Below are positions 46,063 to 62,138 of a stretch of DNA of 64,000 nucleotides, piece after piece (position 1 is the first letter of the stretch; each line of letters opens with the position of its first letter). Below the pieces are notes generated by a model. It was not told where the DNA came from. It worked only from the letters and a program-made list of their open reading frames with translations, and did not search any database. The stretch is taken from positions 8,208 to 72,207 of the forward strand of contig URQZ01000005.1 of assembly GCA_900550255.1 (NCBI GenBank), in the 5' to 3' direction. Source of the DNA: an uncultured Mycoplasmatota bacterium. GTDB taxonomy: Bacteria > Bacillota_I > Bacilli_A > RF39 > UBA660. Made by a program: the position numbers and the translations under genes.

Positions 46063-48555
46063 ATGTCATTTTTCAAAAAAATATTTGATCATGAATATAA
46101 AGAATTAGAAAAATTTAAAAAAATAGCTGATGAAATAATGGAATTAGATCCAGTAATCAGTAAATTAACAGATAAAGAATTAAAAGGAAAAACAAAAGAA
46201 TTTAAAGAAAGACTTGAAAATGACGAAACACTAGAAGATCTTTTAGTGGAAGCTTTCGCAGTAGCACGTGAAGCAGCCTTCCGTGTAATTGGTGAGAAGC
46301 CTTACTATGTCCAAATTTTAGGTGGACTTGCTATTCATTATGGTAATATAGCTGAAATGAAAACAGGTGAAGGAAAGACACTTACTGAAACAATGCCAGC
46401 ATACTTAAATGCTCTAACAGGAGATGGAGTACATATTATTACTGTAAACGAATACCTAGCAGGCAGAGATGCTGAATGGATGGGAGAAATCTATCGTTTC
46501 TTAGGACTTACAGTAGGAATAAATTATCGAGAAAATACAGCTCAAGAAAAAAAAGAAGCTTATAACTGCGATATTATGTATACAACTAATAATGAATTAG
46601 GTTTTGATTATTTGAGAGACAATATGGTAGTTAAAGCAGATCAAAGAGTTCAAAGACCACTTAATTTCGTAATCGTAGATGAAGTAGACTCAGTTTTAAT
46701 AGATGAGGCAAGAACGCCACTTATTATATCTGGTGGTCATATGGAATCTGCTAATTTATATATAGATGCAGATAAATTTGTAAAGAAATTAAAAGAAAAT
46801 GATGGATATATATATGATGAGAAGAGTAAAGCTGTAACTTTGGATGATAAAGGTATAAAGTTAGGTGAAGAATACTTTAGAGTTAACAATTTATATGATA
46901 TAAATAATACAACTTTAGTTCATCATATTAATCAAGCTTTAAAAGCTAATTATGCTATGAAAAATGACTTTGATTATGTTGTAAAAGAAGGAAAAGTTAT
47001 AATTGTAGACCAATTTACAGGAAGACTAATGCCAGGTAGAAGTTACTCAGATGGTCTTCATCAAGCAATAGAAGCTAAAGAAGGTGTTGAAATTGAACAA
47101 GAAACAAGAACTTTAGCTACAATTACATTCCAAAACTTATTTAGAATGTATAAAAAAATATCTGGTATGACAGGTACAGCTAAAACAGAAGAAGAAGAAT
47201 TCAGAGAAATTTATAATATGTATGTTATAACAATTCCAACTAATAAACCTGTTATTAGAGAAGATTTTGGAGATTTAATTTTTGCGACTAAAAAAGGTAA
47301 ATATAAAGCAATCGTTAATGAAATTAAAGAAAGACATGCTAAAGGTCAACCAGTACTTGTCGGTACTATAGCTGTTGAAACTAGTGAATTAATAAGTTCA
47401 ATGTTAAAAAAAGAACATATTAAACATGAGGTTTTAAATGCAAAAAACCATGCACGTGAAGCTGAAATAATTGCAAATGCTGGTAAAAAAGGATCAGTAA
47501 CAATTGCAACAAACATGGCTGGACGTGGAACAGACATTAAGATAGATGATGAAGTAAGACAACTTGGAGGATTATGTGTTCTTGGAACAGAACGTCATGA
47601 ATCAAGACGTATTGATAACCAATTAAGAGGACGTTCAGGTCGTCAAGGTGATCCAGGTGTATCTCAATTCTGTGTTTCATTTGAAGATGATTTAATGGTT
47701 AGATTTGGAACTGATAAAGCAAAAGGTATTTTAGCTCGTGCTGGATTTGATGAAGATGCTTCTATTAGAATTGGAATGTTATCAAAATCAATTGAATCAG
47801 CTCAAAAAAGAGTTGAAGGAAATAACTTCGATATAAGAAAAACTTTACTTCAATATGATGATGTTATAAATCAACAAAGAGAATATATTTATGAAAAAAG
47901 AAATGAAATCTTAGATTGTGATTCAATTCATGAAACAGTGTTAGAAACATTTAAAAATTTTATAACTGATTTAGTTAATAGTCATATTATGCCAGAAGGA
48001 TATTTAACTGAAAATGATTTAAATGAAATTTTAGAGTTTACTAATGAACATTTATTAAAAAGAAAATTAGATTTGATTGATATCAAAGATAGAACTGAAG
48101 ATGAATTAATTGAATACTTATATGAAAGAGTATTAAAAGAATATGATGAAAAACTAAGTGAAATTCCAGAAGAAGTTGCAAATGAATTTGAAAAAGCTAT
48201 TTCTCTTAGAGTTATTGATACTCATTGGATGAATCATATTAATACAATGTCACATTTAAGAGAGGGAATTGGTCTTAGAAGTTATGCTCAAGAAAATCCT
48301 TTAAGAGCTTATACTAATGAAGGATTTGAGTTATATGATGAGTTATTAAATACAATTGATCAAGAAACAACTATGTTCCTATTAAAATCAGAAATAAGAC
48401 AAAATATAGAAAGAAAACAAGTTGTAAAGGGAAAAGCTGTAACGGATAACAATAAAACAAAAAAAGCAACACCTAAAAGAGTTAACAAAATAGGTAGAAA
48501 TGACCCATGTCCATGTGGAAGTGGTAAGAAATACAAACAATGCTGTGGTAAATAG
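46063..48555 (+). CDS. secA: Preprotein translocase ATPase SecA with a C-terminal SEC-C zinc motif
   Basis: Walker A [9 protein letters not shown], DEAD-like VDEVDS, conserved [11 protein letters not shown], C-terminus [15 protein letters not shown]. Confidence 0.95.
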   Translation: [830 protein letters not shown]

Positions 48556-48606
48556 CTTATAAAATAAGTCTTTCCAGAGATTTGGAAGGACAAAAAAATC
48601 TTGAAA

Positions 48607-48661
48607 TTTGTCATCTGTCATCCATTTGTCATCCAAAAATGAAAAAGATGACAAAGATGAC
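48607..48661. repeat. Cluster of five GTCATC/GATGAC hexamers (three direct, two inverted) between secA and the integrase remnant
   Basis: GTCATC at 48610, 48617 and 48628. GATGAC at 48647 and 48656. The 9-bp inverted repeat tttgtcatc/gatgacaaa lies within the cluster. Confidence 0.7.
48616..48634 (+). repeat. Left copy of an 18/19 direct repeat, tgtcaYccatttgtcatcc
   Basis: Matches 61935-61953 with one mismatch (T/C at position 6). Confidence 0.75.
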
Positions 48662-48723
48662 TTATGGGAGTTAGTATCTAATGCTAACTCTTTTTCATTT
48701 GCTGATATTAGGGAGGAAAAATT

Positions 48724-49302
48724 ATGATTAATATCAGAAAAAGAGGAAAAGTCTATCAATATTCATTTGAAATTGCGAAAGTTGATGGAAAAAGACGACA
48801 AATAACAAAGTCAGGATTTGCTACAAAGTCAGAAGCACAGAAAGCAGGAGTTATAGCATATAATGAATATATGAATAACGGAAAAATATTTAATTCAAGT
48901 AATATGTCTTATGCAGATTACTTAGAGTATTGGATTAGCACATATGCAAATCTGAATTTAAAATATTCCACAATAGTAACTTATTACAATATAATAAAAA
49001 TTCATTTAAAACCAAGAATTGGTCATTATATGTTATCTCAAATTGACTCAAGATTATTACAGCAAACTATTAATAAAATTTATGTAGATAATTCATTTTC
49101 AAAAAATTATATTGCAAGTATATTAAAAGTAATAAAGGGTTCTTTTAAATATGCATGTTATTCTTTAAATCTTATCAATGAAAATTCAGCAGAAAGAGTT
49201 CATGCACCAAGAATGAATAAAATTGATAAGGATCCAGTTCATATATTTACACAGGAAGAAATGGAAAAAATATTAAAAAATATAGACAAGAGAAAAATAT
49301 GA
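48724..49302 (+). pseudogene. Tyrosine recombinase (phage/ICE integrase) N-terminal fragment lacking the catalytic domain
   Basis: Arm-type DNA-binding N-terminus (IRKRGKVYQYSFEIAKVDGKRRQITKSGFATKSEAQKAG) and a SAM-like core-binding domain. Stops at 192 aa, where the catalytic domain should begin. Confidence 0.75.
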
Positions 49303-61747: not shown

Positions 61748-61934
61748 TGTTAGAAAAGGACTTTAATTAATAACCCAAAAGTTATAACTATTGAAATACC
61801 GTAATTGTAATTAGATAATAATTAGTGTATAATATAATTGTTAAATCGTTCAAATGTACAAATAATTTTATTGTAGATTTGAATATTTAATTTACATATC
61901 ATATAATCGTATCAGCAAATGGAAAAGCTGACAA

Positions 61935-61953
61935 TGTCACCCATTTGTCATCC
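61935..61953 (+). repeat. Right copy of the 18/19 direct repeat, tgtcaYccatttgtcatcc
   Basis: Matches 48616-48634. Confidence 0.75.
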
Positions 61954-61954
61954 G

Positions 61955-62138
61955 ATGATAGATAATATAAATAAGATTAATACTATAAATACTACAAATA
62001 CTACAAATAGTAAATCAGTTTTACCAAGTAATATAAGGAAATATAAATAATATTACAAATAATATAAATACCGTAAATACTAAGCAAATTTGTTCTTGTG
62101 GATCTGGTAAAAAATACAAACAATGTTGTGAAAAATAA
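61955..62138 (+). pseudogene. Disrupted small N/T-rich ORF ending in a SEC-C zinc motif (possible displaced secA 3' end)
   Basis: MIDNINKINTINTTNTTNSKSVLPSNIRKYK-stop in one frame (61955-62050). [33 protein letters not shown]-stop in another (62037-62138). The last 48 nt resemble the secA 3' end. Confidence 0.55.

Follow-up and report, generated by a model that had tools for sequence, protein, structure and literature searches.

An island very probably derived from an integrative element at the 3′ end of secA in an uncultured gut Mycoplasmatota bacterium

Why does the coding end of secA occur twice in the same stretch of chromosome? In the 64,000 nucleotides (nt) of contig URQZ01000005.1 analysed here (the window, from an uncultured Mycoplasmatota bacterium), secA ends in the codons of its SEC-C zinc-binding motif, and a second copy of those codons, with no open reading frame leading into it, lies 13.58 kb further on. 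An earlier reading of the sequence (the original prediction) held that an element had integrated into the 3′ end of secA and supplied a replacement end, displacing the original one. Loci of the same species that lack the island back this claim, and we are confident that the intervening DNA is a tyrosine-recombinase-type integrative element that entered the 3′ end of secA and later decayed to an integrase-less island flanked by attachment (att) sites.

The two ends of secA and the empty site

The features at the two ends of the island, with the left and right attachment sites denoted attL and attR, are:

46063-48555, plus strand: secA, with its stop codon ending at 48555
46063-48513, plus strand: chromosomal secA, ending with the Pro codon that precedes the second Cys codon of the SEC-C motif
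48514-48555, plus strand: element-supplied replacement end of secA (attL core block), from the second Cys codon to the TAG stop
62097-62138, plus strand: displaced original secA end (attR core block), equal to the empty-site allele except for one G-to-A change
62139-62252, plus strand: original secA terminator and intergenic region, with a hairpin at 62150-62171 and a T run, matching the empty sites of loci L001, L005 and L010
62253-63368: phosphodiesterase-family gene, downstream of the island

The coordinates originally given for the secA end, the integrase start and the right-hand SEC-C segment all held on re-checking. An integrase fragment begins 168 nt past the secA stop, at 48724; the segment 62091-62138 encodes a SEC-C end and is followed by its own terminator-like hairpin (62150-62171); and the exact 14-nt match between 48529-48542 and 62112-62125 is present in both segments. 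A repeat search of the window placed this match within a 47-nt direct repeat of 83% identity (48508-48554 and 62091-62137), and an att-core direct repeat stands at both junctions of the island.

We then compared the window with many same-species contigs, drawn from independent metagenome assemblies of the human gut by exact matching first to the phosphodiesterase-family protein encoded downstream (62253-63368) and subsequently to SecA. The original prediction had proposed a search of relatives for an empty site, and seven fetched loci carry one (L001, L005, L010, L098, L099, L105 and L106), making the island a presence/absence polymorphism with a precise empty site. In these seven, the phosphodiesterase-family gene follows secA after 114 nt; secA ends ...TGTGGATCTGGTAAAAAATACAAACAATGTTGTGGAAAATAA and runs directly into the terminator and the gene located from 62139 onward in the window. 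The junction sequence of the empty sites (...CCTTGTGGATCTGGTAAAAAATACAAACAATGTTGTGGAAAATAAAATAATTTAGTAAAGTCCTGAAATATGGACTTTTTT...) equals the right-hand copy of the window plus everything downstream of it. Because the empty sites continue into the sequence from 62139, the right-hand copy is the displaced original end of secA, and the end now in use is element-derived.

The substitution is also recorded in the distribution of differences along the gene. Between the window secA and that of the empty-site locus L001, 13 differences fall in nt 1-2450 (0.5%) and 7 in the last 43 nt (16%). Those 7 are synonymous, apart from a change of stop codon from TAA to TAG, so that the replacement end leaves the SecA peptide unchanged and restores the target reading frame. 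The attL core block is contiguous with a further segment, the P′ arm, that is missing from the empty sites. The displaced copy has acquired a GGA-to-GAA change (Gly to Glu) in the window and in loci L002, L007 and L009, while GGA is kept in carriers L003 and L006; such a change fits, as expected, a sequence freed from selection.

Attachment arms, integrase remnants and cargo

Two same-species strains, L004 and L101, which are close to the island carriers judging from secA alone, share both arms with the window island (97-98% and 93% identical). Their own element at this site measures 3.9 kb and holds an ISL3 copy, two small open reading frames (ORFs) and a 426-codon integrase gene with one nonsense codon. 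The parts of the window island are:

48556-48723, plus strand: P′ arm, between the secA stop and the integrase stub, nearly identical in L004 and L101
48724-49302, plus strand: integrase stub of 192 amino acids (aa), with arm-binding (PF14657) and SAM-like core-binding (PF14659) domains
49269-49458, plus strand: XRE-type helix-turn-helix fragment without a start and with one frameshift near 49385, overlapping the integrase deletion junction
49505-61747, plus strand: cargo module of 14 co-directional genes (12.2 kb)
61790-61804, plus strand: final 15 nt (IEIP-stop) of a second, L004-type integrase gene, its remainder deleted
61805-62096, plus strand: P arm, 93% identical to L004

Both arms carry short phased repeats. 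The P′ arm presents, in order, ATAAAATAAG, a set of TGTCATC repeats, a terminator-like hairpin (48666-48692) and the ribosome-binding site of the integrase. Its three direct TGTCATC cores comprise two full TTGTCATC copies, at 48608 and 48626, and a TGTCATC at 48616; the cores starting at 48616 and 48627 are 11 nt apart. Inverted copies follow, one full (GATGACAA at 48647) and one partial (GATGAC at 48656). The P arm runs from GCTGACAA through TGTCACC (61935) and TGTCATC (61946), again 11 nt apart, and a series of ATAAATAC(T)-type 9-mers (61962-62082) to a core-adjacent TGTTCT, and the same layout recurs in L067, L024 and L100.

These repeats bear on an 18/19-nt direct repeat (48616-48634 and 61935-61953) that the original prediction had counted as part of the footprint of integration. 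The repeat is present at both ends as described, and forms the beginning of a 43-nt repeat found by the repeat search; it is no footprint or target duplication. It is a pair of putative 11-nt-phased arm-type sites (TTGTCATC) belonging to the element, with one pair per arm. Both in the window and in the 9 loci of the species that have these arms, the 19-mer TGTCAYCCATTTGTCATCC is found nowhere outside them; TGTCAYC occurs 13 times in 64 kb (7.9 expected), with 6 of the 13 inside the two short arms.

Sibling elements show the same arm layout, each with its own 8-mer: TTGTCCAC in L055, L039, L082 and L048, TTGTGTGC in L025 and L044, and TTGTTTCC in L067, L068 and L073. In the second element of L100 the arm motif is the 9-mer TTAGATAAG, present in both its arms, and wherever both arms of a sibling are visible the motif or close variants occur in both. 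The 8-mer also co-varies with the integrase N-terminus: four integrases beginning MVSVRKRGKVYEYRFE.. all pair with TTGTCCAC, and the window integrase, beginning MINIRKRGKVYQYSFE.., pairs with TTGTCATC. The arm repeats are thus putative binding sites of heterobivalent integrases. As a separate observation, the right arm holds at least 4 copies of the ATAAATAC(T)-type 9-mer (61962-62082; one unit fewer in L004), which resembles AAATACAAA within the core, and similar 9-mers precede the core in the siblings L067 and L024; these may be further protein-binding sites.

The integrase and the neighbouring XRE gene are both truncated, as had been predicted. Integrase homology of the stub covers aa 1-186, the catalytic domain being deleted, and over aa 1-185 the stub is 66% identical to the intact integrase of L055. 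At the right end, homology to L004 begins 12 nt ahead of the stop codon of the L004 integrase, and the two integrases are 54% identical over the stub. Because its two ends hold remnants of two different integrase genes, the island is composite, and the simplest origin we can infer is a pair of related tandem elements that lost their inner parts. A search for a live parent of the left stub returned only fragments and relatives at most 68% identical. Intact integrases do occupy the position beside the att site in related species (L055 and L112); in the window the gene is there as remnants only. Identity to the integrases of Bacillota phages is about 35% for this family, and a scan of viral contigs with an intact sibling integrase yielded no relatives.

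Between the remnants lies the cargo. Its first genes encode a LysR regulator, a Nudix protein, an enzyme of the pyridoxal-phosphate (PLP) aminotransferase fold, a DcsG-like ATP-grasp protein and an AAA_28 P-loop protein; an L-amino-acid-ligase-like ATP-grasp protein and an amino-acid-type ABC transporter (binding protein, permease and ATPase) follow; and a NanM-like methyltransferase-fold protein, a P-loop kinase, two Nudix proteins and a Cof-type HAD phosphatase complete the module. The 418-aa ATP-grasp protein matches PDB entry 4wd3, annotated as 'L-amino acid ligase' (E 5e-12), and the best NCBIfam matches of the PLP enzyme are GntC and VioD-like, far under cut-off. When the ligases and the PLP enzyme are set against peptide-antibiotic gene clusters of the L-amino-acid-ligase type (rhizocticin- and bacilysin-like), every Pfam or NCBIfam match is below the curated specific-family cut-offs. 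The block 49505-61720 recurs with the same gene order and 69% nt identity in L095-L097, from another AT-rich gut organism, and the ligase of this recurring module has about 75% protein identity to that of the window. The L095 counterpart (5361-17542) has large serine recombinase genes on both sides (1972-3552 and 19736 onward), so that two mobile backbones of unrelated kinds carry the module. It was absent from the secA region in 80 related species. We regard the cargo as a portable operon, putatively making or processing an amino-acid-derived compound.

A Pfam scan of the 15 island ORFs identified no catalytic integrase domain, relaxase or type IV secretion genes, and the island contains no structural, packaging or lysis genes of a prophage and no conjugation module of an integrative and conjugative element (ICE). 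Att-flanked remnants without recombination or transfer genes of their own are known as cis-mobilisable elements (CIMEs), and the island has this form: both att sites are kept, and functional integrase, relaxase and conjugation genes are lacking. No known RNA families were found in 44-64 kb.

The island had also been judged, by eye, to be more AT-rich than its flanks. This is weakly true (24.0% GC, that is guanine plus cytosine, against 27.5% in the left flank and 24.4% in the right), largely because the left flank includes a ribosomal-protein operon. GC at third codon positions (GC3) is about 0.10-0.16 in the island, inside the flank range, and so is not diagnostic; we rejected composition as evidence of foreign origin, and the donor would therefore have had a similar base composition.

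Use of the site and history of the island

We next consider how widely the site is used. Related species were taken from species-representative genomes by SecA retrieval (labelled 'Tenericutes', 'Bacilli', CAG:822, Candidatus Coprosoma and Candidatus Pelethosoma), which places the host in an uncultured, low-GC gut lineage of Bacillota/Bacilli. Occupancy was counted in the 60 whose sequence extends 1.5 kb or more beyond secA. A same-strand integrase of the stub's family lies downstream of secA in 23/60; its start is less than 300 nt from the secA stop in 11 of these 23, and it is near full length in 8. A second SEC-C end is present in 22/60, and one or both of the two features in 36/60. We also compared 24 attL/attR pairs, from 18 related species and the host species. 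In all of them (24/24) homology starts at the second Cys codon (..[A/T]TGTGG) and ends at the stop or a few bases past it, and upstream of that codon the attL and attR sides are unrelated. Integrations in tRNA genes and in icd show the same pattern, a crossover at the 5′ edge of a block that restores the gene, and the window conforms to it: its attR core is a host allele and its attL core a synonymous version of foreign origin. Accretion at the site is seen in L100 of the host species and in the relatives L022, L078 and L039.

Cargo at this site varies. The element of L055 includes, in the 10 kb of it that was seen, ParA/ParB, a sortase and a Cna-B-type surface protein. Small secA-site islands of other relatives (L112, 5490-11950; L032, 12592-16011; L108, 2976-6342) carry domains of defence or toxin-antitoxin type, among them a Ser/Thr-kinase-like protein, Fic, an MqsR-like toxin with a SocA/Panacea-domain partner and RhuM-family proteins.

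One integrase subfamily at the secA site has a feature of its own: 11 related-species copies are split into two frames at one poly-A run, at the boundary of the DNA-binding and catalytic halves. The run is A8 in L060 (13998), L024 (13999), L014 (13505), L022 (9597), L070 (13178), L067 (21353), L075 (13277) and L086 (14795), and A7 in L080 and in the abundant L108 type (L108 and L109, about 4498). In L112 (7001-8242) it is A9 and the integrase is in frame, as confirmed at the DNA level, and close in-frame relatives read Lys-Lys-Asn there. No other lesion affects 5 of the 11 split copies, and products consisting of the N-terminal part alone make up very large clusters (361, 297 and 770 member sequences) in the protein collection. 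A programmed −1 ribosomal frameshift, an idea that came from the shared A8 run, was downgraded after the in-frame relatives and the A9 of L112 were found. The run appears to be either a homopolymer tract that switches the gene on and off or a hot spot of decay, with slippage as a possible rescue.

Within the host species at least six states of the site are known, tandem accretion among them. Besides the empty site, the window island and the L004-type element, L100 combines an L004-type element with a 2.4-kb integrase-less element accreted at its attR. L107 (12494-13230) has a 0.7-kb insert with one 139-aa ORF and a right-hand secA-like remnant longer than any other, which suggests that this element once captured a longer stretch of some host's secA. 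In L103 and L104 (12494-17990) the DNA diverges directly after the secA stop codon into genes for a RhuM-family protein, a class II aminoacyl-tRNA-synthetase-like protein (tRNA-synt_2b plus HGTP_anticodon), an NTPase and a DNA-methyltransferase-domain protein (MGMT-type); the phosphodiesterase-family gene is missing there, and no second SEC-C end was found within 10 kb.

Among 16 secA copies of the host species, the last 48 nt (48508-48555; the last 16 codons) exist as 8 alleles with 13 variable sites, all synonymous, and the remaining 2445 nt differ at 0-19 sites (under 0.8%). The synonymous mosaic over the last 14 codons is plausibly a trace of elements that have come and gone. The attR core of the window equals the host attB (chromosomal attachment site) allele ATCT, and that of L004 equals the CAGC allele, which is the attB-type end in L103 and L104; mapping the crossover against a single allele failed for L004 until the attB alleles proved polymorphic. 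In the empty sites L098 and L105 there are synonymous variants known otherwise from the end that the element supplies in L100, which suggests past element loss by exchange inside the block.

The island had been thought probably fixed. It is not fixed in the species: empty-site strains exist, and the carriers appear to form one near-clonal set. The neighbouring LysR gene is present in 10 contigs, the same 192-aa stub is called in all three carrier loci that reach it, and secA is identical among the three carrier copies compared. Because the carriers share both the stub and the secA sequence, the island appears to be a single acquisition in near-clonal strains.

From these observations we propose the following course of events. 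Site-specific recombination would have placed an element within the last 14 codons of secA, either at the second Cys codon (TGTGG) of the SEC-C motif or immediately 5′ of it, the element's own attachment site (attP) bringing a copy of those 14 codons and a stop. This would make attL out of chromosomal secA, the element-borne end and the P′ arm, and attR out of the P arm, the original end and the original terminator. The arm-binding integrase probably read the 11-nt-phased 8-mers (TTGTCATC) in both arms together with a core around TGT(C/T)C(A/T)TGTGG. A later deletion would have taken the integrase catalytic domain and fused the stub to the XRE fragment, and another, at the other end, would have left 15 nt of the second integrase gene.

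Several points weigh against this account. Because attB is polymorphic (8 alleles in 16 copies), the crossover is bracketed only if attR keeps the allele present at integration. Since the empty sites L098 and L105 carry element-type variants, exchange within the 42-nt block does not always fall at its left edge. The remnants of two integrases speak for a composite history that admits more than one reconstruction (tandem elements with internal deletions, or one element with two integrases). Recombination itself is deduced from its products, since the island has no functional integrase, and the comparison sequences are metagenome assemblies throughout.

The alternative that fares best, which we hold to be possible and on the whole unlikely, is that integration took place in another strain and the already decayed island reached this lineage by homologous recombination through the chromosomal flanks. 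The same truncated integrase in the carriers, their identical secA where compared, the lack of a known carrier with an intact integrase, the distance of the stub from its nearest full-length relatives (at most 68% identical) and the mosaic look of secA alleles among strains all agree with it. The attR core is a common host allele, compatible with either route, and such a transfer would alter only how the island spread, not its nature.

It is considerably less probable that the island is ancestral in the species and that the empty sites arose by deletion through recombination between the 42-nt SEC-C repeats. Loss by exchange does seem to occur, as the L100-type variants in the empty sites L098 and L105 indicate. 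However, the integrase remnants and the two matched arms mark an integrated element, the three compared carriers have identical secA (suggesting a near-clonal set) while the empty-site strains are diverse, the cargo lies beside secA in 0/80 related species and is found elsewhere inside a serine-recombinase element, and at least five other states exist at the site in the species.

Two further alternatives can be set aside as highly improbable. SEC-C motifs also occur in proteins other than SecA, and coding for the same short zinc-binding peptide gives some DNA similarity by itself, so 62091-62138 might be the tail of an independent small SEC-C gene, a case that the original prediction had named as one that would overturn it; yet the same sequence, with its terminator and downstream gene, is the secA end in empty-site strains, the stretch upstream of the remnant offers only 33 in-frame codons to a stop and no start codon, and the equivalent stretch in other species contains stop codons. 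The junctions might also be assembly chimeras, given that the window and every comparison locus seem to come from metagenome assemblies, but the same left and right junctions recur in at least a dozen contigs produced by different studies and assemblers, with matching arms at both.

The favoured reading, a decayed integrative element in the 3′ end of secA, leaves room for a more speculative one, to which we give limited credence: that the window island is a cis-mobilisable cargo cassette, mobilisable in trans, rather than a dead relic. Its basis is that the core and both arm-site clusters are intact and common to the integrase-bearing sibling (L004 and L101). If so, the SEC-C codons would be the dedicated attB of a large, apparently undescribed element family in uncultured gut Bacilli (36/60 species occupied), with accretion arrays (L100, L022 and L078) in which a newly arrived sibling could provide for the excision and movement of neighbours that lack an integrase, the 14-gene module among them, and the retained 192-aa stub could still serve as an att-binding factor.

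Upstream of this locus, just before the cold-shock, hibernation-factor and secA genes, the window also holds an agr-like quorum-sensing locus (41973-44854):

41973-42731, minus strand: LytTR regulator
42715-44028, minus strand: histidine kinase
44204-44854, minus strand: AgrB

In sibling contigs a 39-43-aa ORF is called beside agrB, and the kinase gene is split (L104 and L105) or of other length in some strains.

Comparison with known systems

The secA zinc-finger codons join the housekeeping-gene landing pads for integrative elements. In this small-genome gut lineage the site is a major entry point for accessory genes, from metabolic operons to toxin-antitoxin-, Fic-, RhuM- and kinase-type domains, and added interest comes from how widely relatives use it, from arms of clear architecture and from a synonymous mosaic within a gene that is essential. 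The att architecture yields candidate attP/attB pairs and integrases as tools for organisms so far not manipulable, and the 14-gene module, which occurs in two different mobile backbones, may encode a metabolic or small-molecule trait that can be transferred. We found no report of secA as an attachment site in the literature searched, the coverage of which was incomplete and so does not establish a first description.

The closest likeness is to the e14 element and phage 21 at icd of Escherichia coli, reportedly described by Hill et al. in 1989 and by Wang, Whittam and Selander in 1997. There too a tyrosine-integrase element occupies the 3′ end of a housekeeping gene, the substitute end is mostly synonymous, the original persists as a far pseudo-end, and the 3′ end of the gene becomes mosaic and hypervariable in the population. 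Unlike the icd elements, those described here target the SEC-C zinc-finger codons of secA, replace 42 nt, and reside in an uncultured low-GC gut Bacillota lineage; the window island is integrase-less and holds a metabolic-looking operon rather than prophage genes.

Streptococcal ICEs and integrative and mobilisable elements (IMEs) target the 3′ ends of rplL, rpsI, rpmG and other genes, and ICESt1 and ICESt3 that of fda in Streptococcus thermophilus (PMC4701971). With the streptococcal ICEs, and with the CIMEs that also occur at fda, the secA-site elements share arm-binding tyrosine integrases at conserved-gene 3′ ends, tandem accretion, persisting integrase-less derivatives and varied cargo. 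They differ in target gene and host lineage, and no conjugation or mobilisation genes were found in the window island.

Islands that occupy the 3′ ends of tRNA and tmRNA genes, reportedly described by Williams in 2002, resemble the present case in their intragenic crossover, in the integrase gene beside attL and in arrays at one site. In the tRNA type, restoration of the gene by the element requires the identity block to run from the crossover as far as the 3′ end. In secA, unlike tRNA and tmRNA genes, the target is protein-coding, and the restoring segment is therefore able to drift synonymously (13 variable sites in 48 nt).

Integrases of the Lambda and Tn916 type are heterobivalent and have arm-type sites. 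The secA-site family resembles them in its N-terminal arm-binding domain (PF14657), in short repeats in both arms, where neighbouring direct copies are spaced by roughly one turn of the helix (11 nt), and in direct plus inverted copies on the integrase-proximal arm; here the repeats are element-specific (TTGTCATC, TTGTCCAC, TTGTGTGC, TTGTTTCC and TTAGATAAG) and their binding by the protein is putative. Set beside these systems the mechanism is classical, and what appears to be new is the target gene, secA, and the host lineage.

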